Shown one piece after another: positions 1-16,188 of a stretch of 22,842 bases of DNA; within the stretch, counting starts at the first letter, position 1, and every line of letters begins with the position of its first letter. The translations under genes were made by a program, and so were the position numbers. The notes beneath the pieces were generated by a model, which saw only the letters and a program-made list of their open reading frames with translations, did no database searches and was not told the DNA's origin. Location of the stretch: NCBI GenBank assembly GCA_044070495.1, contig JBIPSI010000050.1, forward strand, positions 1 through 22,842, given 5' to 3'. This DNA is from Spirulina sp. Lineage in GTDB: Bacteria; Cyanobacteriota; Cyanobacteriia; Phormidesmidales; Phormidesmidaceae.

Positions 1-11
1 ACTGTTCAGAT

Positions 12-218
12 ATGCCTAGCCTCATCACCGACACCCTAACCTTCGGCGGCAACTGCGAACCCGACGCCACGCCGCCCCCCGGCTGGCAAATCACCGCAGC
101 CGACCCGCCCCCCGGAATGGCTTCCCCTCAGTGGGATGCAGTCGCCCAGCAGTGGATCGAAGGCCCCCAGCCCCCGCCCTATGCCCCGCCCCTGTCCTTG
201 TCAGACCTAATCCCATGA
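12..218 (+). CDS. Small Pro-rich hypothetical protein, possibly virion-associated
   Basis: 68 aa ORF with PQWDAVAQQWIE motif. Its stop overlaps the next start (ATGA at 215-218). Confidence 0.5.
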   Translation: MPSLITDTLTFGGNCEPDATPPPGWQITAADPPPGMASPQWDAVAQQWIEGPQPPPYAPPLSLSDLIP

Positions 219-367
219 ATCGCCCCATCCGCCCCGCCATCGCTATCGCCGCCGCTGTCGCCCTTGGCCTACTCGTTCTAGCCGCTGGTTCGCGGGATGA
301 ATTTCCAAGGCGTCGTCAAGGAGGAGGTAGCCAGAGTGCCAACCCTATCGCTCTACTTTCCGCCTGA
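215..367 (+). CDS. Small membrane or secreted peptide (50 aa)
   Basis: ATG overlaps the previous TGA. Basic N-terminus plus hydrophobic run AIAIAAAVALGLLVLAAG. The 3' end overlaps the FHA gene. Confidence 0.4.
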   Translation: MNRPIRPAIAIAAAVALGLLVLAAGSRDEFPRRRQGGGSQSANPIALLSA

Positions 368-908
368 GTTCCCCGACCCGTCACTCGCGGATCACACCCA
401 TCGCCTGACCATCCCCCGACCAGACGCCGACTCTGATGAGTTCCTGGTCGGACGCTCCCCAGAGTTAGACCTAACCTTAGCCGTCAAGACCGTTAGCCGT
501 CGCCATCTGGCCATCACCTACAGCTACGCCGCCGACCGCTGGGCCATTCAGGATCTCAAATCCACCGGGGGCACTTGGCTGAACGACCAGGCCCTCACCC
601 CCTATAACTGGCACTCCCTCACCATCGGAGACAAGATCCACCTCAGCAGCAACCCGCCGATCCGAGTTGTTGAGGATGAGAACGACACCATCAACGACGA
701 CGGCCCCACCACCGTCGTAAGCCTCACGCCCCTGGCCACCATTCCCCCAGCTCCCCTCGACGGCGACCGCTACGACGACGCCCTCTACCTGTTTGTCCAG
801 TGGTTCACCACCGGCACCACCTTCTGGGGAAAAACAGCCCGGTTCCTGCTGCTGGTGCTGCTGGCCACCATCGCCGCCGTTGCGGTGGCCGCCGTCGTCA
901 TCCACTAG
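297..908 (+). CDS. FHA domain protein with C-terminal transmembrane helix
   Basis: FHA motifs VGRS, VSRRH and DLKSTGGTWLND; hydrophobic tail FLLLVLLATIAAVAVAAVV. An alternative GTG start at 336 follows a GGAGG RBS. Confidence 0.85.
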   Translation: MNFQGVVKEEVARVPTLSLYFPPEFPDPSLADHTHRLTIPRPDADSDEFLVGRSPELDLTLAVKTVSRRHLAITYSYAADRWAIQDLKSTGGTWLNDQALTPYNWHSLTIGDKIHLSSNPPIRVVEDENDTINDDGPTTVVSLTPLATIPPAPLDGDRYDDALYLFVQWFTTGTTFWGKTARFLLLVLLATIAAVAVAAVVIH

Positions 909-916
909 CCCAAAAC

Positions 917-948
917 AAAACCCCCAGGGCCTTGGCCGCTGAGGGTTC
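917..948. terminator. Probable hairpin terminator between convergent genes
   Basis: Imperfect stem aacccc-ag-ggcc / ggcc-g-ctga-gggtt preceded by an A-run. Confidence 0.45.
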
Positions 949-960
949 GCTGAGTAGTAG

Positions 961-1965
961 TCACAGCCTAATTTTAGGTCGTGGCGTCAGCCGTCGCCAT
1001 CCATCAATCACCGCCAAAATCTCAGCATGGGGCCGAAAATCCACATACACCGCCCGTTCTACAATCGCCGCCCGTTCCCTCACCAGCCCCCGCAGCATAG
1101 AGCCACCTGGAATGTGGCGGACGCCATCAATGCGATCACCATGGCCCCACCGATACCGGAAGTAACGCCTTCCCTTGCTGGGATATTCGCTGGCCTCATG
1201 CCAAAACCGCCCACCCTGGCAAAACGCCTCATGAAGCGCGTCGTCCTCATCCCCTGGATCGGCATCCTCCCACCAACGAGATTCCGCACTGTCGGACACA
1301 TTTCCCTTAGGAAAATCTTGGCCCTGAATCTCGCCCCCGCAATCGCTGAAGCGGCGAGATTCCGCACTGTCGGACACGCTTCCTAGTGGCTCCACCTCTC
1401 CGCCATCCCAAAACCATAGACCTTGGTTCCCCCGACAGTAGATCGGCTTAATGGGCTGAACGTCTGACAGCACCCACCCCCAGGGGCCAAAGAACCATGG
1501 CGAGTTATGCGTCTGAGTGTTGCCCCGAAAAGTGACCAGCGCGACGATAGCCCCTGCTGGGTGTTCGCTTTCCGGCGGCACATCTCCCAGGCCGCTTGTC
1601 CTGATCCACTCCGCCCCCTCCGAGTCCCACCCCTTCCCGGCATGGATCGCAATCACTGTCCCGACCTCTCTCGGTAGCGCCCAGGTTCTGTTCTCGACAT
1701 CCTTCCCCAGGTGGGTGATCGCGTAGGCCCAGGGCCGCTTTAGGGTAACGGTGGGCGTTCGTTCAACATGTGACAGTTGCCCTCTGCTCGCGTGGCTACA
1801 GCTCGGAGCTGTGCGCGGCTGATCGTCGCCCGAAACCCTTGCTATTGCGTTGTTGTCGGAAAGCCCCCCTCGGCTAACGACGTTGTGACAGTTGCCCCCG
1901 CACTCTAGGCGGCAATAGTAGCCGCTGGGGTGGTCTAGGCTGGGCACCAAGTTAGGGCACATCAT
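961..1965 (-). CDS. ASCH (PUA-like) domain protein with an additional C-terminal basic domain
   Basis: ASCH signature TLKRPWAYAI..GKDVENRTW..IAIHAGK..GAIVALV..RGNQGLW; C-terminal RYFRYRW..HIPGG segment. Confidence 0.85.
   Translation of the reverse strand: MMCPNLVPSLDHPSGYYCRLECGGNCHNVVSRGGLSDNNAIARVSGDDQPRTAPSCSHASRGQLSHVERTPTVTLKRPWAYAITHLGKDVENRTWALPREVGTVIAIHAGKGWDSEGAEWIRTSGLGDVPPESEHPAGAIVALVTFRGNTQTHNSPWFFGPWGWVLSDVQPIKPIYCRGNQGLWFWDGGEVEPLGSVSDSAESRRFSDCGGEIQGQDFPKGNVSDSAESRWWEDADPGDEDDALHEAFCQGGRFWHEASEYPSKGRRYFRYRWGHGDRIDGVRHIPGGSMLRGLVRERAAIVERAVYVDFRPHAEILAVIDGWRRLTPRPKIRL
1277..1377. repeat. 23-bp exact direct repeat inside the ASCH gene
   Basis: cgagattccgcactgtcggacac at 1277-1299 and 1355-1377 (VSDSAESR twice). 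Confidence 0.9.
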
Positions 1966-2200
1966 CGGTCAAGCCTTCCACAATCAAGGACAGAAAGTAG
2001 TTTCGGGCTGGTGCTGGCCACCGCCGCACCATGCTGAGCACCTGATGCGCATTGAGTCGCACCGCTAGCGCCTGTTGGTCGGCCTTACTCAGGCCGTGGG
2101 CCTCCAGTTCCGCCAAGATGGCATCTACGAGATGGTCAACATCATCACCACCTCGGTGCTCTGGCTGTTCGATTAGGTCTAAAAGGTTAAGTTGCGTCAT
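1952..2200 (-). CDS. Hypothetical protein (82 aa)
   Basis: ORF overlaps the ASCH start, suggesting an operon; helical composition. Confidence 0.6.
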   Translation of the reverse strand: MTQLNLLDLIEQPEHRGGDDVDHLVDAILAELEAHGLSKADQQALAVRLNAHQVLSMVRRWPAPARNYFLSLIVEGLTDDVP

Positions 2201-2239
2201 GACTGGGCACTTTAAATTTGCTGAGTTTGGTTGCTAATC

Positions 2240-2638
2240 ATGCGTGTTCATCCGATCTGGTATTTGGTGGGGTTCTCCCTATTCATTGGGGTCGCCAATA
2301 AGGTTTTGGAGAGTCCCCAGGGCGCGGCCCCCGCCGCCGCTGGTGGCAGCTCTGGGGACTACGCCACCGAGGTGGCCAAGATGATCACCGAGGTAACCAA
2401 TATCGACGCCCAAGGGGAGATGGAAGCTCGCCACTACTACGAAGAAACCATCCTGGGCCTAGATGCTTACTGCTCCGAGAATGTGGGGATGGTTGTAAGG
2501 CTTGCCGCCGTCGAAGTGGATAGGAGGGGTGATTCAGGCGTTCAGTTCGCGCTACTAGATGAGCTTGACGTAGTCCTAACCATGGCTGAAGACGCCCCCG
2601 TGCGCCCCACCCCCTGCGAACCACTGATAGGCCAGTAG
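2240..2638 (+). CDS. Hypothetical N-terminally membrane-anchored acidic protein
   Basis: ATG at 2240, hydrophobic IWYLVGFSLFIGVA segment, followed by a strong hairpin. Confidence 0.6.
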   Translation: MRVHPIWYLVGFSLFIGVANKVLESPQGAAPAAAGGSSGDYATEVAKMITEVTNIDAQGEMEARHYYEETILGLDAYCSENVGMVVRLAAVEVDRRGDSGVQFALLDELDVVLTMAEDAPVRPTPCEPLIGQ

Positions 2639-2656
2639 CCCACCACCACGCCAAAG

Positions 2657-2692
2657 CAAACCCCCAGAGATGCGATCACCTCTGGGGGTTTG
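2657..2692. terminator. Bidirectional intrinsic terminator
   Basis: 13-bp stem caaacccccagag / ctctgggggtttg between convergent ORFs. Confidence 0.8.
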
Positions 2693-2701
2693 TTGTGTTG
2701 G

Positions 2702-3037
2702 TTATTCGCCGCCTAGTTGAGACCTCAGCTCCTCCAACTCCTTGAGTGAGGTTGTGTGCTTTTCAACTTCGCGTTCATACCAGCGCACGCACTCCTCGAC
2801 TTCTACCAGCTTCTCTTGCTCTTGCTTGATTAGCTGGTCAACGATTTTCCCAAGACGTCTGGCTGAGTCCTGGGAGACTCTGTCGATGATGGCTTGTACC
2901 AATCCTTCATAGTCTCCAAAAGCTCCGAGAGGGACTTCGCCCCCACCTCCTGCTTCACTTTCTCCATGAAGTCCCTGGCCTCGTTGCTCACGGTCAAGTT
3001 CAGTCGCGGTTTCTGTGCCATTCTCAACCTTCTCCAT
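2702..3037 (-). CDS. Coiled-coil hypothetical protein (111 aa)
   Basis: ATG at 3037; heptad-rich C-terminal half IVDQLIKQEQEKLVEVEECVRWYEREVEKHTTSLKELEELRSQL. Confidence 0.6.
   Translation of the reverse strand: MEKVENGTETATELDREQRGQGLHGESEAGGGGEVPLGAFGDYEGLVQAIIDRVSQDSARRLGKIVDQLIKQEQEKLVEVEECVRWYEREVEKHTTSLKELEELRSQLGGE
2830..3021 (-). CDS. Ribbon-helix-helix (CopG/Arc-like) DNA-binding protein, nested in a different frame of the coiled-coil gene
   Basis: MAQKPRLNLTVSNEARDFMEKVKQEVGAKSLSELLETM has the alternating beta-strand, helix and G-x-x-S-L-S-E-L-L helix pattern. Confidence 0.7.
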   Translation of the reverse strand: MAQKPRLNLTVSNEARDFMEKVKQEVGAKSLSELLETMKDWYKPSSTESPRTQPDVLGKSLTS

Positions 3038-3063
3038 AGATCGTCTCCATGATTGTACGCCGC

Positions 3064-3126
3064 TTATACGCATAACTTATTAATGCGCATAACTATGCGT
3101 ATTGTAGTTCAAGTTATGCGTATAAT
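3064..3126. promoter_or_regulatory. Divergent promoter/operator array
   Basis: Perfect 15-bp inverted repeat ttatacgcataactt (3064-3078) / aagttatgcgtataa (3111-3125), a central near-palindrome aatgcgcata-ac-tatgcgtatt, and TATAAT at 3121-3126. Confidence 0.8.
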
Positions 3127-3299
3127 GCACGCATGGATAACCAACTCCACAACGGGGCCTCACTCCCCCGTTTTCCTGGCTGGCCCTAGGGGTGTATGGG
3201 CGTTCATGCAGGCGGTGCAATTCCGCCCAGGCCAAAGTGACTGACTAGCGTCAAACGTAGTGACCGGGGAACGCCCCCCGGATTTTCTTAGGAGAAAAA

Positions 3300-3629
3300 G
3301 TGACCCAAGAAGAGTTGATGACCCTACGCCTACCCCGCCTACAGCAGATTGCCGAGCGCCACGGCATTCAATGGGCCAATGCCCACGGGAGAGGCCGCCA
3401 TCTACGCAAACCTGAGCTGGTAGAACTGCTGGCCCCCGTCTTAGAGGCTAAAACGCCCCCGCCCCTGCCCCAGAAAGTCTATCGAGTGGTGAACCGCGCC
3501 ACGGGAAAAGAGGTCGGGCGTTTTCCATCCATCTCCTACGCCGGTCTATTTTGGCGGGGCCTGTGCCAAGCCAACGGATCAGCAGAAGCCATCAAAATGA
3601 AATTTCGCATGGAGGAAACCTGGGAATGA
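3300..3629 (+). CDS. Hypothetical protein with Rho_N/HeH-like N-terminal motif
   Basis: AGGAG RBS before GTG; LRLPRLQQIAERHGI...LRKPELVELL pattern. Confidence 0.65.
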   Translation: MTQEELMTLRLPRLQQIAERHGIQWANAHGRGRHLRKPELVELLAPVLEAKTPPPLPQKVYRVVNRATGKEVGRFPSISYAGLFWRGLCQANGSAEAIKMKFRMEETWE

Positions 3630-3829
3630 CCGCCGAAGCCGCCCACTACTGCACCCCCAAAGACCGAGTGACGAGCGAAATCCTCAAGGAAATGCGCTCC
3701 ATGAGCTTGCCCGACCTGGTCTATCTTCGCGACCAAGCCCAGGCCCTCAACCAAGCGCGTCTAGAGCAAGAAGCCGCCCTCAACGCCCGTTACCCCCTCA
3801 CCACCGGAACCGATGACCATGGCGAGTAA
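3626..3829 (+). CDS. Hypothetical protein (67 aa)
   Basis: GGAGG RBS; ATGA overlap with the upstream stop. Confidence 0.6.
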   Translation: MTAEAAHYCTPKDRVTSEILKEMRSMSLPDLVYLRDQAQALNQARLEQEAALNARYPLTTGTDDHGE

Positions 3830-4082
3830 CCAACAAGTTCCCGAACGCATCGCCCGCACCCTCGCCAAAGCTGCCTTTGTATCGGCTTACCTGGCTGACG
3901 AAGCAACCAGCGGCAGTACCGAGCATGTAGGGCAGAACCCAGAGGAGCTTATGGCCTCCTTGAATCACGTTGCCGAATGCCGCCTACTAGAGATGCCCCG
4001 TAGCGAGTATCTAGCCAACCTGCGCCGCTGGCTCTCGGCCTTCGATTGTGAACTCTTAGAGGAAACCCCCGATGCCGAATGA
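3813..4082 (+). CDS. Hypothetical protein
   Basis: ORF overlaps both neighbours in the same operon. Confidence 0.6.
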   Translation: MTMASNQQVPERIARTLAKAAFVSAYLADEATSGSTEHVGQNPEELMASLNHVAECRLLEMPRSEYLANLRRWLSAFDCELLEETPDAE

Positions 4083-4404
4083 AACCCCCACCATCCAACC
4101 CTGGGCCATGGACGCCCTACGAGAGCTGATTGATATCGCAGGGCTGCTCAACGATGAACAGTTCATTTCCCACGAAGAAGACCCCCGAATCACCGTCATC
4201 GACCGCCTAACCCAGCTCATCCAGTCCTTAGTGATTGACCGTGAACCCCTAGACCCCCAGGACGATGATCAGCGAGTCTTCTTTATGCCAGAGGACGGAG
4301 TCCCTGTCGAGGTTCGCTCCAGTGAGAACCCCTACGAGAGTGAACGAAACCTAGACCGGATTGACGACGACGAGTACGGCAACCCCCGCCTGCTCCCTTA
4401 CTAA
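4072..4404 (+). CDS. Acidic hypothetical protein (110 aa)
   Basis: GAGG RBS; overlaps the upstream ORF; its stop abuts the ribozyme. Confidence 0.65.
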   Translation: MPNETPTIQPWAMDALRELIDIAGLLNDEQFISHEEDPRITVIDRLTQLIQSLVIDREPLDPQDDDQRVFFMPEDGVPVEVRSSENPYESERNLDRIDDDEYGNPRLLPY

Positions 4405-4466
4405 CCCGCCTGACGATGGCCCCTGCCAAGGGCCGAAACATTCCCCACCGTGGGGAGTGTCGCGGG
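4405..4466 (+). ncRNA. Type I hammerhead ribozyme
   Basis: Stem I cccgc (4405-4409) / gcggg (4462-4466). Core CUGACGA (4410-4416) plus one extra U. Stem II ggccc / gggcc. GAAA at 4435-4438. Stem III acauucccca / uggggagugu. GUC cleavage triplet at 4459-4461. Confidence 0.92.
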
Positions 4467-4650
4467 AGGCTTGCACGGCCCCGGATTCCAACCCCGTGGC
4501 CCTAAGCTTCTTCGCCTCCGGGCTGGGGCTGTTATACCGATGCGTTTTTACGCCCAAAGAATGTTGCCATACAGCCCGGAGCCACCACTAGGCGGAATCA
4601 TCTCCAGTCTGAGAGCGACGTGCTAAACGGTGGCCCAGCCCCGGAGCTTA
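4462..4650 (+). ncRNA. Putative IS110 bridge RNA
   Basis: Non-coding segment just upstream of an IS110 recombinase. It has a 5' hairpin (4474-4498), an outer stem (4516-4525 / 4636-4646) and two arms (4526-4577, 4581-4634), each with a large internal loop capped by a small hairpin. Confidence 0.75.
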
Positions 4651-4677
4651 TGTAATTGCGACACAGGACGTTGATCT

Positions 4678-5880
4678 ATGCCTTCAATCATCGGGGTAGA
4701 GGTTGCTAAGACCTCTGTGCTTTGCTGCAATCTGGATGACGGTCTACCCGTTCCTAGCGACCCAGCGCAGTTTGCCCATTCCTATGAACCCATCCCCATC
4801 CTGGCCAACAGCGACGGTGTGAAACGCCTGTTGGAGCTGGGAGATCACTATGTCATTGAACCTACGGGGGATTATTCCCGCGTTTGGATCAACACCCTCA
4901 GGGCCAACGGTAAGACCGTCCTTAGGGTCAATCCCAAACGGGTATCTGCCCTGAAGCAGTATCACGGCGTAGCCAGTAAGACCGACCGATACGACGCCGC
5001 ATTCCTGGCCATCTATGGAGCCATGAACCACGGCAAGCCCAGCGCATTCCTTAGCGACTACGCCGAGGAACTGAGGGAAGCCACAGCCCAACATCAATTC
5101 CTTAGCCGCCAGACGGGGAACCTTCAGCGCCGCCTATGGCAACTCCTAAGCCACGAATGGCCGGAAGCCTGCCGCGTGGCATCAGGGAAGAAACCCCAGC
5201 AGCGCCGCCTATGGCTTAGTCCCCATCCTCCGGCGCTGTGGCGGTTTGTCGCTGGTGAGTCGGTCAGGAACCAGAAAAGCAGGGAAGCCAGTCTAGACGA
5301 AACCATTGGCTCCGGCCTCTCCGTGATGAGTAAGACCCTGGCCGCGCAGGTCTGCGAGATGGAGCGGCAACAGTTCCTTATTGAAGAGCACATCGCCGCA
5401 ATCCTCGAAGTCAGCGAGTTTAAGCCCTATCACACCGTATTTGATCGGTTCGGCTTCGGCGAGATGACGCGGGCCGTCCTGCTGAGCCGCATCTACCCCT
5501 TTGATCGCTTCCTAGGCCCAGACGGTAAGCCCCGCAGGGAGAAGCGCCCTAGTTCCAAGACAGAAGGGCGCTTCCATCGCCGTGATCGCTCCCTGGGAGC
5601 CTTCCGTATGGCCCTGGGCAATGGAACCCGCGTCTATCAGTCAGGGCAAGACATGAAGCGTCGCGCCGCTGGTAGTCAGCTAACCCGAACGGCGCTGTAT
5701 CTCCATGTGGGGACAAAGATTTGCATGGCCAGCGCCAGAAACCTCGCCATGCCCCCCAAACTTCGCGCCCATGCTGACTACCATCAATCCCTCGCAGGGG
5801 TGCCCCACAAGCAGGCCGTCAGTAAAACCATGAGCCGAATCGTCAAAGACCTATACAGGGAGTTGCTGGCCACCCTGTAA
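4678..5880 (+). CDS. IS110-family (Piv/MooV-like) recombinase/transposase
   Basis: RuvC-like motifs IIGVEVAK, VIEPTG, VNP and KTDRYDA; C-terminal Tnp domain LG..YQSG (Ser322)..GS..RTALY. Confidence 0.9.
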   Translation: MPSIIGVEVAKTSVLCCNLDDGLPVPSDPAQFAHSYEPIPILANSDGVKRLLELGDHYVIEPTGDYSRVWINTLRANGKTVLRVNPKRVSALKQYHGVASKTDRYDAAFLAIYGAMNHGKPSAFLSDYAEELREATAQHQFLSRQTGNLQRRLWQLLSHEWPEACRVASGKKPQQRRLWLSPHPPALWRFVAGESVRNQKSREASLDETIGSGLSVMSKTLAAQVCEMERQQFLIEEHIAAILEVSEFKPYHTVFDRFGFGEMTRAVLLSRIYPFDRFLGPDGKPRREKRPSSKTEGRFHRRDRSLGAFRMALGNGTRVYQSGQDMKRRAAGSQLTRTALYLHVGTKICMASARNLAMPPKLRAHADYHQSLAGVPHKQAVSKTMSRIVKDLYRELLATL

Positions 5881-5902
5881 AGCCTCCTGAGATGACCCCG
5901 CG

Positions 5903-5929
5903 CCCCCGCTCTGTCGGGGGTCTTTTTTT
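5903..5929 (+). terminator. Intrinsic terminator after the recombinase
   Basis: cccccg / cggggg stem followed by tcttttttt. Confidence 0.8.
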
Positions 5930-5936
5930 GGCCGCG

Positions 5937-6027
5937 CTTATACCGATCCCTTCGTTCGTGCTGCACTCTGATCGCTAGTGTGGGTAGCGAAATCTTCGTG
6001 CAGCACTCACTACGGAATCGGTATAAG
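5937..6027. repeat. 91-bp imperfect palindrome with CTTATACCGAT termini
   Basis: cttataccgat (5937-5947) / atcggtataag (6017-6027); gtgctgcac / gtgcagcac; cgcta / tagcg. Confidence 0.9.
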
Positions 6028-6056
6028 GTAGGTTAAGGCGCTTTAGGAGTCTACCG

Positions 6057-6833
6057 ATGTCAGATGTCGCGCTATCGCCAAGTCCTCGTTCGGCAAGCCC
6101 CGCCCTCGATTTGGAGGCGGTGAATCGGCAGTGGGCCGATGCCGATGCGAGCCGCCTGGTGCAGTGGGGCTACGACACCTTTGGCGAGGGGCTAGTCCTC
6201 AGTACCAGTTTTGGCATTCAGTCGGCGGTGATGCTGCATTTGGTGACCCAGGTGGTGCCCCAAATTCCCGTCATTTGGGTGGATACAGGCTATCTGCCGG
6301 TGGAGACCTACCGCTTTGCCGAAGAACTCACTGAACGCCTACACCTGAACCTGAAGGTGTATCAATCCTCCCTTAGCCCCGCCCGCATGGAAGCGATCTA
6401 CGGTCGGCTGTGGGAGCACAACGATGTGGAATCCTTCAATCGCTACGACTACATCCGCAAGGTGGAACCCATGCAGCGGGCCTTGACGGAACTGGGGGCG
6501 ACCGCATGGCTAGCGGGCCTCCGGGCCGACCAAACCGAGCACCGCCGCACCCTAGAACGCATTGGGCTTCAGGGCGGACGCTACAAGCTAATGCCCATCC
6601 TCAAGTGGACCTCTAAGCAGGTCTATCAATACCTCGTAGCCCACGATTTGCCCTACCATCCCCTCTTCGACAAGGGCTACGTCACCGTGGGCGACTGGCA
6701 CTCTAGCCGTCCCATCAGCGCCAATGACAAAAACGAGCGCGACACCCGCTTCAAAGGGCTAAAGCAGGAATGCGGTCTGCACCTGCCCCAATCCCCCGAA
6801 GCCGCCGCTAGCCTGGATTCTAGTTCGTTGTAG
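6057..6833 (+). CDS. cysH: Phosphoadenylyl-sulfate (PAPS) reductase
   Basis: [29 protein letters not shown] and C-terminal ECGLH motifs. Confidence 0.95.
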
Positions 6834-7760
6834 TCAGCCTGATTTGCTGAGGCTGAGCAGGGCGACGCTGAGGGTCACCAATGCCACGCCGAGGGCCTGC
6901 ACCCAGGAAAGATGCTCTTGCAGGAGGAGGGCGGCTAAAACGGCGGTGAGGGCGGGGTTCGCGGATCCCACCATGGCGGCGGCGGTGGCCCCCACCCAGC
7001 GAATCCCCAGATTGTTCAGCAGGTGCCCGCTGGCGGTGGCGAGGGCCGACAGTAGCGCCCCAATCCACAGACCAGCCCAGTCTAGGCCCTGAAGGTGGAC
7101 GGGCCAAATCAGCAAACACAAACCCGACAGCACCAGGGTGGCGGCAAAGCTGATGACCGTGAAGGGGAGAGGATGGTAGGTTTCAAAGGCTCGTTGGGCC
7201 ACAACGGTATACAGGGCATAGGCCAGGGCCGAGGCCAAACCGAGGATCACCCCCAGCCAGCTCATTGCCCCTTCGCCACCGAGGGGTACCGTGAGGCCGC
7301 TGCCCAGCAAAATCAGGGCCATAATGCCCCAGCTTGCCGCCGAGGGGCGGTGGCCAAACCAGCCCCAGGACAGCAGCGCCGTATACACCGGGAAGGAGAA
7401 AAACAAAGTGAGGGCAATGCCCGTGGGAATCAGCCCGATGGAGACATAGAGCAGCCCCAGGTACAAAAACATCAGCCCGCCCCCGGCCAAGCTCAACCTC
7501 AGTTCTTGGCGGTGGGTGGGCTTTTTGAGGCGATGCAGGTCGGGCCAGAGGTCGGGATAAACGGGGGTGAGCGCCATCGCCATCAGCGGCACCCCCAGCA
7601 GCATCCGCATAAACAGCAGCAAAAAGGAATTGGGCAGGGTGGGTTCCACAAAACCGCCCACCACCATGTCGCCTAGGGGATAGGCATTAAACAGTATCCG
7701 TGCCACCAGGTTTTGCAGAGAAAAGAACCCTGCCGCCAGCAAAATAATCAGATAACCCAT
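6834..7760 (-). CDS. EamA/DMT family transporter
   Basis: About 10 hydrophobic helices in two repeats, e.g. P.GIALTLFFSFP and NPALTAVLAALLLQE. Confidence 0.88.
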   Translation of the reverse strand: MGYLIILLAAGFFSLQNLVARILFNAYPLGDMVVGGFVEPTLPNSFLLLFMRMLLGVPLMAMALTPVYPDLWPDLHRLKKPTHRQELRLSLAGGGLMFLYLGLLYVSIGLIPTGIALTLFFSFPVYTALLSWGWFGHRPSAASWGIMALILLGSGLTVPLGGEGAMSWLGVILGLASALAYALYTVVAQRAFETYHPLPFTVISFAATLVLSGLCLLIWPVHLQGLDWAGLWIGALLSALATASGHLLNNLGIRWVGATAAAMVGSANPALTAVLAALLLQEHLSWVQALGVALVTLSVALLSLSKSG

Positions 7761-7811
7761 AAGCCTGTCTTTGCGTAATCCAACCCATCAAGCATCCACG
7801 TCCAAGCTTTG

Positions 7812-7906
7812 CCCTCATCCCCCAGCCCCTTCTCCCTAGGGAGAAGGGGAGCCGGAAACGGTCTTCAAAGTCCCTCTCCCTTGGGGAGAGGGATTTAGGG
7901 TGAGGG
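7812..7906. repeat. REP-like cyanobacterial palindromic repeat
   Basis: ccctcatcccccagccccttctccc..gggagaagggg and tccctctccc..gggagagggatttagggtgaggg; a related copy lies at 9166-9230. Confidence 0.85.
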
Positions 7907-7914
7907 TCAGATCA

Positions 7915-7946
7915 GCTCAATAGAGCAAGTTTTTGCTCTATTGAGC
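7915..7946. terminator. Perfect 14-bp hairpin at the add stop codon
   Basis: gctcaatagagcaa / ttgctctattgagc with a 4-nt loop. Confidence 0.6.
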
Positions 7947-8975
<1,029 letters not shown>

Positions 8976-9058
8976 CTATCGCCGGATTCGGAAATCCAAG
9001 GGAACATCTAGGATATACCCCTATTCTCGGTTGAATTTAGAAAAATGGGGCCAAAACA

Positions 9059-9099
9059 CCGTAGAACCCAACGACTTTGGGCTGTCGCGGGTTCTACGG
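9059..9099. repeat. GTAG-type palindromic hairpin
   Basis: ccgtagaaccc / gggttctacgg with inner cgac / gtcg. Confidence 0.7.
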
Positions 9100-9165
9100 C
9101 AACCTCAGTTTGGGATCAGTCAAACATTGCAATATCAAGACACCTGCTTCCAGCTTGCATTGTAG

Positions 9166-9388
9166 CCCTCACCCTAAATCCCTCTACCTCTGGGAGAGGG
9201 ATTTTGATCCGTTCTAGCCCCCTCTCCCCATGGGATCTACTGTTTATACACATCTTGTTTTCATGCTGCAAGTCCTTGGGGATCCCCCTAAATCCCCCTT
9301 GGAAAGGGGGACTTTGACTCTGGTTCCTCCCTTAACAAAGGGGACTTTGACTCTAGTTCCCCCCTTTTTAAGGGGGGCTAGGGGGGAT
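9166..9388. repeat. Cluster of REP-like palindromic repeats
   Basis: ccctcaccctaaatccctc..gggagagggga, then gatcccccta aatccccctt..aagggggactttgactct (twice)..aaggggggctaggggggatc. Confidence 0.85.
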
Positions 9389-9411
9389 CAACCCTAGGAA
9401 CCAAACGCAGT

Positions 9412-11811
9412 CTAGTAGGGCCACTTCCAGTGGGTGATTTCGTCCTGGTCTTTGCCCTCGGTGTGGGCGTAGGTGAGGCATTCGATGATTTTGTTTTTCA
9501 TCTTTTCCTTCACATGAGCCGCTGCCGAGCCCAGCTTGGGCACCCGGTCGATCACGTCGATCACCAGGTTAAAGCGGTCGATCTGGTTGTTGATGGCCAG
9601 CTCTAGCGGGGTGTTGATATTGCCCTGCTCCTTGTAGCCCCGCACATGGATGCGGTCTTGGTTGGATCGGCGATAGACCAGCTTGTGGATCAGCCAGGGG
9701 TAGCCGTGGAAGTTGAACATCACGGGTTTGTCCTTGGTGAACAGGGAATCGAAATCCCGGTCGTTGAGTCCGTGGGGGTGCTCCCCTTCGGAGACCAGCT
9801 TGAACAGATCCACCACGTTGACAAACCGCACTTTCAGGTAGGGGAATTCTTCCCGCAGAATGGCGGTGGCGGCGAGGGATTCCTTGGTGGTGATGTCGCC
9901 GCAGCAGGCCATGATCACATCGGGAATGTCTGGCTCGGTACCGCAGTCGTCGTTGCTGGCCCAGTCCCAAATGCCGATGCCCTTGGTGCAGTGCTGGACA
10001 GCCTGCTCCATAGTCAGGTATTGCAGGTGGTTCTGCTTGTCCGACACGATGACGTTGATGTAGTCTACGCTGCGGAAGCAGTGGTCGGCCACGGAGAGCA
10101 GGCAGTTGGCATCGGGCGGAAAGTAGACTCGCACCACTTCAGGGCTTTTGTTGGTGGCCAAGTCCACGTAACCGGGATCCTGGTGGCTAAAGCCGTTGTG
10201 ATCCTGCCGCCACACCAGGGACGACAGCAGAATATTCAGCGACGACACCGACCGCCGCCAGGGCACATGGTTTTTGCAGATGTCCAGCCATTTGGCGTGC
10301 TGGTTGAACATGGAGCTAACCACGTGGGCGAAGGCTTCGTAGGTGTGGAACAGGCCGTGGCGACCCGTTAGCAGGTAGCCCTCTAACCAGCCTTGCAGGG
10401 TGTGCTCGCTCAGCATTTCCATCACGCGGCCCTCGCGGGAGAGTTCGCTGCCGTCCATGTCCTCCGGCAAAAACTCCGCCATCCAGGCTTTTTTGGTGAC
10501 TTCATAGACCGGGTGCAGACGGTTGGAATGGGTCTCATCTGGCCCCATCAGCCGGAAGTTTTTGACGTTGTTGCCCATGATGTCGCGCATGAAGATGCCG
10601 AGGGCCTTGGTGTTCTCAAACTCCACGCTGCCGGGGTGGGGCACCGGAATTTCGTAGTCCCGGAAGTCCGGCATTTTCAGCGCCTTACGCAGCAACCCGC
10701 CATTGGCGTGGGGGTTGGCACTCATGCGGCGGGGGCCAGCCGGGGCCATGGCTTTAATCTCCGGGCGCAGAGTCCCATTTTCATCGAACAGTTCCTCCGG
10801 GCCGTAGCTCCGCATCCAGGCTTCTAGGTCGCGCAGGTGTTCGGGGTTGCTGTGCATGCCGCCCATGGGCACCTGGTGCGCCCGCCAAAAGCCTTCTACC
10901 TTGTGACCATCCACATAGCTCGGCCCCGTCCAGCCCTTGGGCGACCGCAGCACAATCATCGGCCAGCGGGGGCGTTCCACATTGCCGTTGATGCGGGCTT
11001 CTCGCTGGATTTCCTTGATTTTGAGGACACATTCCTCCATCACCACCGCCATTTTCTGGTGCATGTCGGTGGGGTCACTGCCCTCCACAAGGTAGGGGGT
11101 GTAGCCGTAGCCGTAGAACAGGGCGTTGAGTTCGTCGTGGGAAATGCGGGAGAGAATGCTGGGGTTAGCGATTTTGTAGCCGTTGAGGTTGAGGATCGGC
11201 AGCACCGCCCCATCCCGCGCCGGGTTGATGAACTTGTTGGAGTGCCATGCCGTCGCCAATGGCCCGGTTTCCGCCTCGCCATCTCCGGCCACGCAGGTGA
11301 CGATCAGGTCGGGGTTATCCAGCACCGCCCCGTAGGCGTGGGAAATGCTGTAGCCCAGTTCGCCGCCCTCGTGGATCGAACCGGGGGTTTCTGGCGTCAC
11401 GTGGCTACCAATGTGGCCCGGAAAGGAAAACTGCTTGAAGAAGCGCTGCATCCCTTCTTCGTCTTCGCTCTTGTCGGGGTAGATCTCCGAGTAGGTGCCC
11501 TCTAGATACACCGGGCCAAGCACCCCTGGCGCACCGTGGCCAGGGCCAGCCACGAAGATCATATCCAGGTCGTACTTTTTAATTAGCCGGTTGCAATGGA
11601 CGTAGGTGAAACTCAAGGCCGGAGACGCGCCCCAGTGGCCGAGTAAGCGATACTTGATGTGTTCCGGCTTGAGGGGTTCCTTCAGCAGGGGGTTGTCTTT
11701 CAGATAAATCATGCCCACCGCCAAATAATTACAGGCGCGCCAATAGGCATGAATGTTATAAAGCTCGTCGTCGGTCAGGGATTGGGATGGGGGAGAGAAT
11801 GCAACTACCAT
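9412..11811 (-). CDS. xfp: Xylulose-5-phosphate/fructose-6-phosphate phosphoketolase
   Basis: [45 protein letters not shown] motifs; start chosen at ATG 11811. Confidence 0.97.
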
Positions 11812-12021
11812 AGGTATGCCAAATTGAAAGTGCAACGTGGAGCCAAACAGCCCACGATTTAACCGAACAGATACCTACTGCGTCCTGGATCGAACCCTTG
11901 CACCCTAGCAACGTTCCCTTAAATTGGGGTTAATTGGGTCGCGCTAGATCACTAGGGTCAGAAACCTCTTTGGCCGATAGGCTAGCACTCCACCCCCAAC
12001 GAAGCCGTAGCTATCGATGCA

Positions 12022-12174
12022 ACTAGTGCGGTTCTCGATAGCGTGAGATACCCCATGGCTGGGGTCTAGATCCCCCCAGTCCCTAGCGGTCGAAGGTTCA
12101 CTTTGTACCCCCCTTATCAAGGGGGCAGGGGGGATCATCGCCATGGACTTCAGCCCAGTAAAATCCGCTATAGT
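12022..12174. repeat. Nested repeat: a (ATA)GCGGTT..CCGCTAT-type element containing a REP-like palindrome
   Basis: Ends actagtgcggtt / atccgctatagt; inner ccatgg pair; gatccccc..cccccttatcaagggggcaggggggatc at 12069-12136. Confidence 0.6.
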
Positions 12175-12206
12175 GCGAAGAAATAAGACATCGGTCATTG
12201 GGCTAA

Positions 12207-12337
12207 GAGGGCGTTTGAAAAGGGTTGCCCCAGGTGCGATTGGTCGCTAGATCGGTGCAAATCTACGGGATTTTTGACGACGGAGGCTGACCTCATCGGT
12301 ATAACTTGGGACGAGCTTCAGCTTTTCAAACGTCCTC
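12207..12337. mobile_element. MITE with IS5/IS1031-like ends
   Basis: TIR gagggcgtttgaaaag / cttttcaaacgtcctc (15/16), flanked by TAA on both sides (12204-12206, 12338-12340); no ORF. Confidence 0.75.
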
Positions 12338-12594
12338 TAAAGTCCTGTCATTTACCCAAACTCTATGGTTGACGGCTGTCCTAAAAAAGTAAAAAAATGA
12401 CGGGGCCAGAGATGGGGATGATTTGTGGTGCGCTCATCCGAATCCTATTGAGGGGTTAAGACCTAGGGAAGCTATCGAAACCTTCTATCGCTCGGCTACA
12501 AGTAGACAGAAAGGCCATACGGATGGGGACGAATCTGCACACATCGCAGCGTAATCCGGTATGGATTGCGCTGCCCTAGCCCAGCCGATATCTG

Positions 12595-14055
12595 CTATGG
12601 CGATTTCAGAAAAATTGAAAAGGTTGATCCTGCTTCCAGGGTACTCGTCACCTCAATATGACCTCGGTGAGCCTGCACGATTTGTTGGACGATGGCTAGC
12701 CCCAGACCTAGCCCTCCAGACGCTTTGGTGCGTTTTGAATCAACCCGGTAAAACCGTTCAAAAATCATTGGCAATGACTCTTTGGGAATACCGATACCGG
12801 TGTCTTGCACCTCAATCACCGCCTGGTGTTTCTGTTGCAGTAACCGAAGTTGAATATGTCCTCCAGCGGGGGTGTACCGACAGGCGTTGCTGAAAAGATT
12901 AGCGATGGCCTGTCGCAGTAAATTGGCGTCGGCATTCACCATTACGGCGGTAGCGGGCAGTTGCGACGAGAGTTGGAGGTTGTGGGTCTGGGCCTCGGTC
13001 TGCCAATCACTGACCAGTTGAGCCGCCAGTTCGGTTAAATTGACTGGTTGTAAATTTTCTGGGGCCAGCAATCCCTCGTGGCGAGCTAGAAACAGCAGTT
13101 CGCCGACCAGGGTGCTCATCGTTTTGGTCAGACTCACAATTTTTTCTAGACGCGGACGAATTCCGTTGGGTTGGTGATCGGGTTTCGGATACTCCAATTC
13201 AAAGTCCTCCAATGCCATCAAACCAACCTGGGCATTGCTCAGCACCGCCGCCAGGGGGGCACGGAGTTCGTGGGAGGCGTTGGCAGTGAACCGCTGAAGT
13301 TGGTTACAGGCGTTTTCTAAACGCTGGTTGATGGTTTTGAGATTTTCTTCGCGGTTGGCTAATTCTCGCTCCAACTGGTGAAGTAGGTGAATGGCAAAAA
13401 AGGCCGCTAGGGTGCCAATCACCACCAGCAAACACAGGGCCAACCAGGCTACTTGCTGGTAGCGATCACGGTGCTGAATCCGCTGGGCCAGCAACGCTTC
13501 TTCTACCTCCAGGAAGCGGTCTATGGCGTTGCGAGCGGCATCCATGGTCTCTTTGCCCTCCTCCAACCAGGTGTAGAGCGCGGCGGCAGGCACCGGGGTG
13601 CTGGGTTCCGCTGGAATCAGTTGGGATTCCTGCTTGAGGGTTAATTTCTGCTGAAAAATTGCCAGATTTTCGTCCACGAGTTGGCGAATTTCCTGCACCC
13701 GTTCCACCTGGGCCGAGTTGTCGCTGACTAGAATTTCGAGCCGATCCAGGGAACCGGGAATTTCAATTTGAGCCCAGCGGTAGGGTTCCAAAAATTCCTC
13801 CTGCCGGGTCAGGCCATAGCCGCGCACGCCGGTTTCAGCATCGATTAAGGCCTTGACCAGGTACTTGGTTTCGAGCCTCACGGTTTGGGTATGTTGCACC
13901 CAGGTTTCGTCCTCCGCCAAGCTGGCCTTGAGCCAGGCAAAGGCCGATAACGCCGTAAACATACAGGTAACCGGGATGGCGATAATCACCGCTCCGCGCC
14001 ATCGAATTGGCAGGTTTTGCCAGGGCTGATACAGGCGTTGGGCCAGATTTGCCAT
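12595..14055 (-). CDS. Sensor histidine kinase with CHASE3 domain
   Basis: Two TM helices; [14 protein letters not shown] (CHASE3); [10 protein letters not shown]-box; N, G1, F and G2 boxes. Confidence 0.93.
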
Positions 14056-14058
14056 AGG

Positions 14059-14736
14059 TCAAGGCGCAGGAGGGGCAAGGCGATAGCCGACGCCGTAGAC
14101 CGTTTCAATCCAGGTGTCGGTATCTAAACTTCGTAGGCGCTGGCGCAATCGTTTGATGCGAGCCGTCACGGCGTTGCTCTCCGGTTCAGAGCCCCATTCC
14201 CAGAGGGCCTGCTCAATTTGGTTGTGGGTCAGCACCTGGTGGGGATGGCGCAGCATATATTCCAGCAGTTGAAAGTCGCGACTGGAGAGCTTGAGACTGT
14301 AATCGCCCCGCTCCACCCGCATGGTATCCAGATGTAGCACGAGGTCAGCTACTTGCAGTACATCGCCGCACCAAAGGGGGGATCGCCGCCGCAGGGCCCG
14401 CACTCGCGCCAGCAGTTCTGCCACATCTACGGGCTTCACCAGGTAGTCATCGGCCCCGGCATCTAGGCCCACAACCTTATCGGCGGTGGTATCTTTAGCC
14501 GTCAGCATCAGAATGGGGGCGGCTTTACCCTCCTGGCGGTAACGCTGGCACAGGGAAATGCCATCTTCCCCCGGCAGCATCCAGTCGAAAATCAGCAGAT
14601 CATAGTCTTTTTCTCCCATCAACCAGCGGGCAGTGGTACCATCCTCAACCGCATCGACCACATGGCCAGCGTGGCTTAAAGCTGCCTGCAAGGGTTCAAG
14701 TTGTTCGGGGTCGTCTTCAACCAGCAGGATGCGCAT
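14059..14736 (-). CDS. OmpR/PhoB-family response regulator
   Basis: MRILLVEDD, DWMLP, GADDYLVKP and winged-helix end IETVYGVGYRL. Confidence 0.95.
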   Translation of the reverse strand: MRILLVEDDPEQLEPLQAALSHAGHVVDAVEDGTTARWLMGEKDYDLLIFDWMLPGEDGISLCQRYRQEGKAAPILMLTAKDTTADKVVGLDAGADDYLVKPVDVAELLARVRALRRRSPLWCGDVLQVADLVLHLDTMRVERGDYSLKLSSRDFQLLEYMLRHPHQVLTHNQIEQALWEWGSEPESNAVTARIKRLRQRLRSLDTDTWIETVYGVGYRLAPPAP

Positions 14737-14803
14737 GGGCGAGCGTGGATGGGTGGATGGTGGATGGCTATCAAGACAGATCCAACCAGAAGGGCCTAGC
14801 TAG

Positions 14804-15364
14804 TTATGGATTCAAACGAACCGTGAAGGCATCGAATTCGCCGTTCTCAAATTCGCCGGTAATGGTGATGCGATCACCCACCGAAACATAACTGGCCGTA
14901 TTGTCGCCGTAGACATCCCAGGTATCGACCCGCAGGGTGCGATCCCCCGTGTTGATCTGAAAACCATCTTCCCAGACGCGTTCAACGGTACCGCTATAGG
15001 TGTTGGAGGACGGGCGAGGATTAGCACTAGCGGCTACGGCATCCGCCGGGATCGCTGTGGTTGCAGGGGAAGTAGAACCAGAGTCCGTTCCAACGATGGT
15101 GAAGGCATCAAACTCACGGCCTTCAAATTCGCCGGTAATGGTCACTTGATCGCCAATGGTGACATGGCTGGCGGTGCTGTCGCCATAGACATTCCAAGCA
15201 TCGACCCGCAGCGTGCGATCCCCCGTATTGAGTCGAAAGCCATCTTCCCAGACCCGTTCAACTGTACCGGTGTGGGTGGTTTGGGCGTGGCTGAGATTGG
15301 GCAACACCAGCGCAGCCCCAATCCCGCTAACTACTAGGACACCTAGAACAATGCGATTCATCAT
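14804..15364 (-). CDS. Secreted protein with two tandem OB-fold-like repeats
   Basis: Signal peptide ending SHA; GTVERVWEDGF..TGDRTLRVD.W..GD..TITGEFE..EFDAF occurs twice. Confidence 0.8.
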   Translation of the reverse strand: MMNRIVLGVLVVSGIGAALVLPNLSHAQTTHTGTVERVWEDGFRLNTGDRTLRVDAWNVYGDSTASHVTIGDQVTITGEFEGREFDAFTIVGTDSGSTSPATTAIPADAVAASANPRPSSNTYSGTVERVWEDGFQINTGDRTLRVDTWDVYGDNTASYVSVGDRITITGEFENGEFDAFTVRLNP

Positions 15365-15431
15365 CAATCTCCATGCGTTGAGCGAAACGATCCAAACGAA
15401 CCAAGGAACGAGTTCACTCTACAAACGAACC

Positions 15432-15448
15432 ATGACTCAAAAATGACA
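15432..15448 (-). promoter_or_regulatory. OmpR-family tandem binding site (GTCAT-N6-GTCAT)
   Basis: atgac at 15432-15436 and 15443-15447 (11-bp period), upstream of a -10-like TAGAGT. Confidence 0.55.
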
Positions 15449-15545
15449 GCTTTATCAGCCCCGGCCCTAGAGGTTCACCGATCCATGGCCTATGGGCCTA
15501 GGCTGGTTGCCCTCCGCTGATCCCATGCCACCAGCCCAGGCAAGT

Positions 15546-15764
15546 TCAGCCATCTGTGGTCTCGATGTTGAAGATGGCGAAGGGGAAGTACAGAAACGTG
15601 GACACGCCCAGCGTCACCGCCATGAATGCGCCGCAGGAGTTCCAGGGAATCAGCACTGAGGTGACAGTGCCTATATCGGCGGCTAGGTGCGAGAGGTTCT
15701 GGGACTGCAATCCCCGCTTTTGAAACTCGACCCGGAACATGCGGGCGGGCAGCACTAGGGCAAT
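15546..15764 (-). pseudogene. nhaC: Fragment of a Na+/H+ antiporter NhaC (C-terminal part)
   Basis: IALVLPARMF..NLS..D.GTVTSVLIPWNSCGAFMA.TLGV.T..YFPFAIFNI resembles the NhaC C-terminus; truncated at both ends. Confidence 0.8.
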
Positions 15765-15874
15765 AGCATTGTTGTGAAAACGATGCTAATTTGTCCCGGC
15801 GACACTAATTCACCCTCGACGACACCAATCTGCCACAGATGACAGACAACGTGTCACTGTATGCCTGAAAACAG

Positions 15875-15948
15875 GGCGGATGAGGAGACTCGAACTCCCG
15901 AATGGTGGAACCACAATCCACTGCCTTAACCACTTGGCTACACCCGCC
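15875..15948 (-). tRNA. trnH: tRNA-His(GUG)
   Basis: GGCGGGTGTAGCCAAGTGGTTAAGGCAGTGGATTGTGGTTCCACCATTCGGGAGTTCGAGTCTCCTCATCCGCC; G-1 with C73 discriminator; CCA not encoded. Confidence 0.97.
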
Positions 15949-16188
15949 ATAACTGCGTTTCCGCGTTTTTTACTCTAGCACAGGGGAGCAAACCTGTGGA
16001 GTTTTTTTTGGAGAAGAACCGGGAAGGAAAGACCCGACGTTCCTAGTCGCGAGGAAATTAGGCTGATTTTTGGCATGTATCTGCTGCATTGGATACCAGC
16101 GAACTGGAGTCCAATTCCTATAATGGGGAGCATATGTCTCTCCATGCCCCGCCCGCTGGAGGTGGCGCACCCCCAGGAGTTGTCTACT

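Follow-up and report, generated by a model that had tools for sequence, protein, structure and literature searches.

A hammerhead ribozyme upstream of a predicted bridge RNA and an IS110-family recombinase in a cyanobacterial cargo element

Minimal IS110 elements are about 1.2–1.6 kb long and hold a recombinase and its RNA alone. In IS621 (PMC11208160; structures 8wt6, 8wt9 and 9t56), the recombinase joins a RuvC-like DEDD domain to a serine-bearing Tnp domain, and its structured RNA is encoded directly upstream, at the element end beside the junction promoter. The guide rule given by Durrant et al. 2024 (PMC11208160) states that left guides equal the left half-site plus core and that right guides are reverse-complementary to the core plus right half-site. 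The bridge RNA is described as weakly expressed from chromosomal IS621 loci (PMC13626964), and 2026 papers, this one included, present its supply from integrated copies, as well as excision, as live questions. Here we describe a 22,842-nucleotide stretch of cyanobacterial DNA (the window), contig C50 of a 74-contig, 5.3 Mb (5,313,730 bp) assembly called G000, in which a type I hammerhead, a predicted bridge RNA and an IS110-family recombinase follow one another inside a putative mobile element of ~12 kb. It is likely, at a probability of roughly 0.7, that hammerhead cleavage creates the 5’ end of the bridge RNA from a read-through transcript, with both the cleavage and the co-transcription being predicted steps.

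In R2 and other non-long-terminal-repeat retrotransposons, a ribozyme resembling that of hepatitis delta virus (HDV) at the RNA 5’ end frees a functional RNA from a host or read-through co-transcript; unlike the present case, that is another ribozyme class, in eukaryotic elements with an RNA intermediate, and the released RNA is a template or mRNA and not a guide for DNA targeting. Synthetic ribozyme-guide-ribozyme (RGR) cassettes place a hammerhead 5’ of a CRISPR guide, which sets a defined 5’ end whatever the promoter or upstream sequence (PMC9881144). The locus described here also has a hammerhead 5’ of a guide RNA, but RGR cassettes are engineered, whereas this would be a natural counterpart serving a recombinase guide, and no 3’ ribozyme was seen. 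IStrons, as PMC13521648 describes them, carry a group I intron and a TnpB guide RNA in one transposon and thus resemble this locus in having a catalytic RNA and a guide RNA on one transposon transcript; in IStrons the ribozyme splices and the guide serves a nuclease; at this locus a self-cleaving ribozyme would accompany a recombinase guide. Bacterial hammerheads near integrases and in prophage operons, of unclear function, were reported by Perreault et al. 2011 (PMC3088659), and a 2026 preprint (10.64898/2026.10.21.760802) presents 152 loci that form a divergent, hammerhead-like cluster, likewise scoring under the Rfam thresholds. Full-text literature searches turned up no account of a hammerhead ahead of a bridge RNA and an IS110 recombinase, in agreement with a first-pass annotation of the window that knew of no such description; the arrangement is apparently undescribed, with overlap with the 152-locus cluster possible. 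The three pieces are known, and what is apparently new is their combination, the 10–16 kb cargo element and the interlocking of ribozyme and guide.

The hammerhead and its conservation

The first-pass annotation placed a complete type I hammerhead right after the stop of the last operon gene, with a cut after C4461. Both statements hold: the last operon open reading frame (ORF), 4072–4404, ends in a TAA stop at 4402–4404, stem I begins at the next base, and position C17 falls on 4461 by sequence.

4405–4466, plus strand: type I hammerhead (sequence reading, minimum free energy fold, genome-wide scans, covariance model R1, covariation)
4405–4409 (CCCGC) with 4462–4466 (GCGGG), plus strand: stem I, 5 bp
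4410–4416, plus strand: core CUGACGA, followed by an additional U4417 (sequence)
4418–4422 (GGCCC) with 4430–4434 (GGGCC), plus strand: stem II (sequence)
4435–4438, plus strand: GAAA (sequence)
4438–4447 with 4451–4460, plus strand: stem III, 10 bp
4461, plus strand: C17, with the predicted scissile bond between 4461 and 4462

The minimum free energy fold of 4400–4470 is the three-way junction of a hammerhead (-32.8 kcal/mol, z -2.81), and, as expected of type I, stem I is open whereas stems II and III are capped. The consensus core positions listed in PMC3088659 (C3 U4 G5 A6 N7 G8 A9 / G12 A13 A14 / A15.1-U16.1 / H17) are all kept in the window, 13 in number (4410–4416, 4435–4438, 4438/4460 and C4461). 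By sequence, fold and covariation, 4405–4466 is a complete type I hammerhead. It shares with the hammerheads that PMC3088659 describes the consensus core, the three-helix junction and a setting in selfish elements, close to integrases and, as proposed here, inside polycistronic transcripts; a candidate pairing of loop II with the 3’ tail in 21/40 family members may correspond to the pseudoknot-type tertiary contacts reported there. Unlike those, the hammerheads here are missed by Rfam models, many have an extra U after A9, and the proposed 3’ product is a recombinase guide RNA, which would give the cut a specific purpose.

Scans of the window’s genome point to a specific motif. A descriptor (CUGANGA, an optional one-base insert, GAAA, UH, and three stems of at least 4 bp each) matches exactly two sites on both strands of the 5,313,730 bp, or 10.6 Mb of searched strand: one in the window and one on contig C56. 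Covariance model R1 was built from 25 aligned copies with the structure supplied by hand, because RNAalifold on the MAFFT alignment gave stem III alone and put stems I and II out of register. It finds the same two sites and none more, both upstream of recombinase paralogues, and scores 63.4 bits (E 3.8e-16) on the window hammerhead. In BLAST comparison, the window and C56 copies are 87% identical across the hammerhead region and 66% identical across the recombinase DNA, with proteins 57% identical. The C56 hammerhead also opens directly after a stop codon; its core and stems I and II are identical to those of the window, and its stem III is wholly different yet pairs perfectly.

A conserved hammerhead upstream of homologous recombinases, for which the first-pass annotation had proposed a survey, was present at 30 of 39 foreign homologue loci (R1; recombinase identity 26–70%) and absent from nine. 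In a phylum sample of 400 genomes plus the window’s own, recombinase homologues (cut-off E<=1e-10) occur in 40/401 genomes, the window’s included, all of the same class and at 26–37% identity. R1 gives a strong match (E<1e-8), one per locus, at 24/29 foreign loci of this sample, and the descriptor is matched at 16/29; R1 also matches 6/10 foreign loci from a separate sample of the window’s own family. The distance from cut to start codon is 189–260 nt (22 foreign loci matched by pattern, plus the window).

In the 29-sequence R1 alignment, which was fitted to the model and is biased toward its structure, 91.8% of paired cells are complementary, compared with 69.9% after shuffling and 31–51% with partners slid; the slid controls and the raw MAFFT alignment agree. 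Both sides have changed in 12/17 pairs over the three helices, and helix III is 99% paired. These doubly changed pairs, together with the 91.8% versus 69.9% contrast, argue that the hammerhead is under selection. Alignment A1 (25 sequences) has 16 invariant columns. Loop II could form at least 6 bp with bases 1–10 of the 3’ product in 21/40 family members, through pairs that vary between members (GGACAC/GUGUCC, GACGC/GCGUC, GACCCAG/UUGGGUC), and the mean pairing across family members is 5.45 versus 4.12 shuffled. This contact is at chance level in the window’s subgroup (window, L201, L096, L202).

Two variants of the hammerhead were also observed. Locus L026 (minus strand) has two tandem hammerheads, 2811–2872 and 3130–3189, ~320 nt apart, upstream of one recombinase homologue, and in L205 / L193 (G466) an insertion of ~110 nt lies within stem III, with a weaker R1 match.

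The hammerhead appears to be tied to the downstream module rather than to the upstream gene. First, among 18 ORFs ending just 5’ of a hammerhead, just three pairs are alike at E<=1e-5. Second, a scan for the hammerhead pattern in GTDB genomes, one for each prokaryotic species, returned at least 134 stretches, with DNA for 80 loci; among these 80 loci of the matches listed, all 11 with cyanobacterial record titles have the recombinase downstream and no other locus does. Third, after 16 loci from three hammerhead-array contigs had been dropped and 7 loci without a suitable ORF set aside, Pfam found an IS110 domain in the first downstream ORF of 0/46 non-cyanobacterial loci among the matches listed, several of which sit in housekeeping genes and are probably chance matches. 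A tblastn search of the recombinase against a phage collection gave no match, and the window recombinase as a single-protein query against a genome contig collection gave no relative.

The predicted bridge RNA and the recombinase

The structured RNA running from the predicted cut to the ATG is 216 nt long. The first-pass annotation had proposed a bridge-RNA-like structure of ~190 nt here; the identification is upheld and the length is not. Its loops predict where the element joins its flanks, which is why it is read as a bridge RNA, and on these matches 4462–4677 appears to be a real one.

4462–4677, plus strand: bridge RNA, proposed 3’ cleavage product (single-sequence fold, consensus fold, guide-junction matches)
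4462–4515, plus strand: 5’ hairpin of the bridge RNA
4516–4581, plus strand: target-binding loop 1
~4589–4670, plus strand: second guide region
4532–4541, plus strand: right-target guide UUAUACCGAU, reverse complement of host flank 6017–6026
4557–4567, plus strand: left-target guide with the first bases of the left end, AAGAAU-GUUGC (AAGAAUGUUGC), matching the C47 left junction exactly
4593–4599, plus strand: tentative candidate left-donor guide CGGAAUC, identical to the element right end 6013–6019
4609–4619, plus strand: tentative candidate right-donor guide CUGAGAGCGAC, complementary to the left end GTTGCTCTAG
4678–5880, plus strand: IS110-family (bridge) recombinase, 400 aa (Pfam, NCBIfam, alignment, AlphaFold2, Foldseek)

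Eight elements make up the window’s subfamily (window, C56, L096, L201, L202, L192, L206 and L194). The relation between right-target guide and flank is present in all eight, with a different sequence in each, and a consensus fold of five members has compensatory changes in 14/52 pairs. By hand pairing, the right-donor candidate matches the left end at 8/10 positions, one G-T wobble included, and a like relation is seen in L201. As in IS621, the guides of the window family obey the left-identical and right-reverse-complement rule, judging from the junction matches; unlike IS621, the guide order in the window’s subfamily is mirrored, with the right-target guide 5’ of the left-target guide. An alternative assignment of loop 1, with a left-donor guide beside the right-target guide, was dropped for the window and L201 once the L201 left junction had been found. 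The RNAs of L206, C56, L096 and L202 contain a duplicated unit, and their guide order is partly decoded.

The RNA of a larger subfamily has two modules, one with variable guides of the forms N6-GAA and N6-UUC, the other with conserved guides such as GAGAGUGAA and GGGUGAUUC. Joining the left-donor guide to the reverse complement of the right-target guide yields a 12-nt prediction of the right junction, which is found with 0 mismatches in 8/13 parsed loci and with 1 mismatch in four more; in several loci this junction overlaps the recombinase stop codon. The predicted left junction lies 9.0–14.5 kb upstream in 6/8 parsed 20 kb loci, always with the same single mismatch, and was not found in the two G156 copies (20 kb loci), the chance expectation being ~0.09 matches per pattern per 20 kb locus.

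The hammerhead and the bridge RNA 5’ hairpin share nucleotides. A GUCCAAA-type 5’ hairpin motif also occurs in hammerhead-less homologues, e.g. L010, L194 and L206, so the ribozyme looks like an add-on to the guide. Unlike here, no hammerhead precedes the bridge RNA of IS621, and the sole ribozyme in PMC11208160 is an engineered HDV ribozyme.

The IS110 recombinase assigned downstream in the first-pass annotation is confirmed as to family by several independent matches. The protein carries Pfam PF01548 (DEDD_Tnp_IS110, E 5.5e-14) and scores 288.8 bits, against a cut-off of 180, with NCBIfam NF051857.1 ‘IS110 family transposase’; Pfam PF02371 (Transposase_20) was not detected in it. A sequence search of the Protein Data Bank (PDB) returns IS621 (E 0.002) and ISCro4 (E 0.036), with YQSGQ aligned to YESGS of ISCro4. 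An AlphaFold2 model built with 32 homologues has a mean predicted local distance difference test score of 93.2, and Foldseek gives chains of IS621 and ISCro4 as its ten best PDB matches, all over the full length, at 17–18% identity and E 7.5e-10 to 2.6e-8, the lower value being that of IS621. By alignment, the catalytic positions are E8, E61, D103, D106 and S322. Among 32 sequences, E61, D103, D106 and S322-G323 are invariant, and the first acidic residue, encoded within 4678–4704 in the window, is Glu (E8) in five (window, L201, L202, L096, L192) and Asp in the other 27. Alignment and model indicate an IS110-type recombinase with an N-terminal RuvC-like DEDD domain and a C-terminal Tnp domain bearing the serine. 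This architecture and an RNA encoded directly upstream are shared with IS621, from which the protein differs in its 17–18% identity and in the undetected Transposase_20 domain.

The mobile element and its junctions

The long element transcript proposed in the first-pass annotation implied an element, which is delimited here as a cargo carrier of ~12 kb; as for the transcript, there is no terminator-like site between operon and recombinase. The remaining parts of the element in the window are as follows.

3264–3281, plus strand: terminator-like hairpin just upstream of the cargo operon
3300–3629, 3551–3829, 3813–4082 and 4072–4404 (together 3300–4404), plus strand: small overlapping cargo ORFs (ORF list)
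5902–5929, plus strand: intrinsic terminator after the recombinase gene (terminator scan)
5938–6016, plus strand: terminal module of the element, with a direct copy of the right-target guide at 5938–5947 and an imperfect palindrome ending ...CTACGGA
6017–6026, plus strand: right junction, with core ~AT at 6017–6018 and host right target ATCGGTATAA, upstream of cysH

The cargo ORFs at 3300–4404 have no Pfam or PHROG match, and the operon is homologous in the C56 paralogue and in L201. Comparisons with relatives support both ends. First, the left junction of the window element lies on the minus strand of C47 as GAAGAAT/GTTGCTCTAG (the slash marks the split) at 2151–2157, identical to 4557–4567, and the outer flank of this site is orthologous to DNA upstream of cysH in relatives G405 and G419. 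Second, the empty sites in these two genomes share AATC.G.ATAAGGTAGG, and the reconstructed empty site of the window element, ...CACTGGCTGAAGAAT/CGGTATAAGGTAGG, resembles ...CATTGGCAAAAAAAT/CGTTATAAGC of G419; the chromosomal target reads ...GCTGAAGAAT/CGGTATAAGG... Third, L201, the G405 element, has a recombinase 69% identical to that of the window and is syntenic with window 250–5973. Its empty site is preserved in the window’s genome on contig C13 (...GTCGTTTAGAT/TAAGCTAAGCC), its left junction reads ...GTCGTTTAGAT/GTTGTTCTAATG and its right junction ...ACGGAAGGAT/TAAGCTAATCG, giving 11,864 bp core to core. The 5’ side of L201 loop 1, AGCUUAAUCC, is the reverse complement of the right flank and the 3’ side, UUUAGAUGUUG, equals the left junction; both junctions and the G000 empty site thus agree with the loop-1 guides.

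The window copy would accordingly run from C47:2150 to the end of C47, across an assembly gap, and then through window 1–6016, with at least 8.2 kb assembled, 2,150 nt of it on C47, and appears to be one copy of a ~12 kb mobile element. The window begins within the element because the assembly breaks (window 1, C56:15457, C47:1) inside two paralogous elements where these are ~88% identical. Core-to-core lengths are 10.1–15.7 kb in the larger subfamily and ~10.7 kb for L206. Judged by these junctions, the elements are 10–16 kb cargo carriers and, unlike IS621, not minimal insertion sequences; also unlike IS621, the bridge RNA here would lie behind an operon, 9–14 kb from the far end.

Other junction searches were less productive. 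A two-half junction scan at k=7 was too noisy to use; a stricter version recovered both L206 junctions and did not recover the left junction for L201, L202, L205, L040 or L041. For the C56 copy, no left end was located in the window’s genome; a C12 site that agrees with the C56 left-target guide was put down to coincidence.

The right end has a recurrent architecture. Each of the eight subfamily elements has its own 9–10-mer on the 5’ side of loop 1, a sequence that recurs just after the recombinase terminator and returns inverted 30–80 nt beyond its direct copy. In the window this module spans 5938–6026, and it is kept with covarying arms in C56, L096, L201, L202, L192, L206 and L194; across these elements a direct guide copy is followed by a palindromic module of 30–70 nt. 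When the host flank is included, the result is a long inverted repeat able to fold as a hairpin, a perfect palindrome in L201 and L202, with arms that differ between elements and always match the guide. Conceivable roles for the module are those of a second substrate, an immunity site or an aid to excision. Another reading took the two copies of the 10-nt repeat, at 4532 and 5938, for the ends of a small insertion sequence; it was rejected because paralogues conserve the flanking module and the actual ends map to 6017 and to C47.

Several further observations concern these elements or their surroundings. The 10-mer TTATACCGAT, the same as the window right-target guide, lies at window 12295–12304 (minus strand) and at ~35 other G000 sites within a ~150 nt repeat resembling a miniature inverted-repeat transposable element (starting gacgtttgaaaagccgaagc...); this could be coincidence, or the sites could be potential off-targets. 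L332, the IMG/VR record behind L269, is a viral-classified contig of 15,387 nt (1–15387) with a 127 nt direct terminal repeat, assembled as a circle, on which hammerhead, guide-like RNA and recombinase form the same module. The contig could represent the element in an excised or episomal state, and its donor junction, sought with three guide-like 12-mers, was not found. L034 (G156, 3286–16494) represents two ~13 kb copies in one complete genome with common cargo that includes an HU-like protein, one of 190 aa resembling tyrosine recombinases and one with a Peptidase_S74 (tail-fibre chaperone) domain, most other ORFs being without a Pfam match. A homologous element at L027 2759–4166 stands beside a cluster of ~9 tRNA genes, and a HEARO RNA (L023 1171–1397) lies near another homologous locus. 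The window’s own tRNA gene (15875–15947, minus strand, 60 bits) is unrelated to the element’s insertion site.

Proposed mechanism, alternatives and significance

On the plus strand, terminator-like sites were found at 3264–3281 and 5902–5921 alone, with none between 3282 and 5901, a pattern consistent with a single transcription unit that spans the small ORFs, the hammerhead, the bridge RNA and the recombinase. The element would move by IS110-type, bridge-RNA-guided recombination. RNA polymerase would read through the cargo operon into the hammerhead, which would fold co-transcriptionally and cut itself after C4461, releasing the upstream mRNA with a 2’,3’-cyclic phosphate end and leaving the downstream RNA with a defined 5’-OH at G4462. 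The bridge RNA would take up the first 216 nt of that product. Once released from stem I, five bases would join its 5’ hairpin (4462–4515), which would disfavour re-ligation. Its loops would then pair with the chromosomal target ...AAGAAT/CGGTATAA... and the element ends, directing the recombinase encoded just downstream, and the processed 5’ end would presumably matter for recombination.

A number of observations weigh against this mechanism. The Rfam check proposed in the first-pass annotation came out negative: no Rfam hammerhead model reaches its gathering score in the window, none matches 4300–6100 at E<=10, and the best Rfam result in 4390–4480 is a partial Hammerhead_II (10.8 bits versus 37 needed, E 7.5). 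Fifteen related loci compared with the Rfam hammerhead models at E<=0.01 gave no match either, and the hammerhead group here is undetected by all of these models. U4417 is an extra base between A9 and stem II, common to 11/25 aligned sequences. The window hammerhead may be slow at cellular Mg2+, because stem I is just 5 bp and the loop II pseudoknot is unconvincing (4 bp versus a shuffled mean of 4.33). Nine of 39 loci are R1-negative (L010, L011, L033, L194, L195, L197, L198, L029, L031), among them L029, where the contig is cut and leaves 131 nt of upstream DNA, and L031, a partial gene. Bridge-RNA-like guide motifs were read upstream in L010, L011, L194 and L206 (the same place as L195), and since several loci keep guide motifs without a hammerhead, the ribozyme is dispensable in some lineages and not obligatory. 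No sigma-70-like promoter was called in 2600–6100 by a simple scan not tuned to cyanobacteria, and an internal promoter of another type is conceivable. Finally, hammerheads with the same stem I are frequent in phage contigs that have no such recombinase, in 79/80 IMG/VR loci examined, the recombinase being present in one; the motif may for this reason be a general transcript-cutting device.

This last point leads to the alternative that survives best, though we think it unlikely: the hammerhead would be a phage-type cutting or insulating device that separates cargo mRNA from recombinase mRNA and alters stability or translation through 5’-OH and cyclic-phosphate ends, with no specific need for it in setting the bridge RNA 5’ end, its adjacency to the bridge RNA being simply that of an operon boundary. 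Such a role would suit the frequent CGC...GCG hammerheads of IMG/VR contigs and of Clostridia prophage arrays without a recombinase, the bacterial hammerheads of unknown function that PMC3088659 places near integrases and flanking genes in prophages, and the nine homologue loci without a ribozyme. It does not account for a cut kept constantly 189–260 nt before the recombinase start in 22 foreign loci while the genes upstream are unrelated, and the covarying pairing of loop II with the first bridge RNA bases links the ribozyme to the guide. Far less probable is an inactive relic or a purely structural motif, such as a protein-binding or attenuating hairpin set, whose catalysis is abolished by the extra U and a lack of tertiary contacts. 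U4417 beside the core, a pseudoknot not above chance in the window, L201, L096 and L202, and Rfam scores that are all below threshold would be in keeping with it, whereas the 13/13 consensus core positions and the 16 invariant columns in 25 sequences speak against it, as does the retention of the U insertion in 11/25 diverged members, which is unexpected of a dead motif. A chance match in GC-rich intergenic DNA, for which one could cite loose pattern matches inside housekeeping genes of unrelated bacteria and the lack of any Rfam hammerhead model at threshold, is effectively refuted by two-site scans and covariation: the descriptor matches just two places in the 10.6 Mb of strand scanned, each at the homologous position, R1 gives E 3.8e-16, covariation backs the fold, and the motif is kept in 30/39 loci at 26–70% recombinase identity.

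Release of the bridge RNA by the hammerhead is thus the preferred explanation. With confidence only a little better than even, we extend it to a general picture in which cyanobacteria harbor widespread 10–16 kb cargo elements, possibly episomal or virus-like, that integrate by IS110-type recombination and whose guide is matured by a hammerhead that interlocks with the guide 5’ hairpin to form a switch triggered by cleavage.

Bridge recombinases currently attract interest as programmable tools for genome rearrangement, and guide production from integrated copies is an open point. The window-family elements suggest a different solution, in which the guide is contained within a long operon transcript and cut free by a self-cleaving ribozyme. 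Since 2011 the roles of bacterial hammerheads have been unclear; the proposal gives one set of them a specific, testable function, and the analysis exposes a hammerhead family undetected by Rfam models. The diverged recombinase/guide pairs, with their decoded target rules, may be of use for engineering. If the proposal is true, the locus would amount to a ribozyme-guide cassette of natural origin and would likewise show bridge recombinases moving large cargo in nature, with IS110-type recombination mobilising 10–16 kb in these elements. Mobility would in that case follow guide supply, and both would hinge on transcription of the genes of the element itself instead of a promoter at the circle junction.

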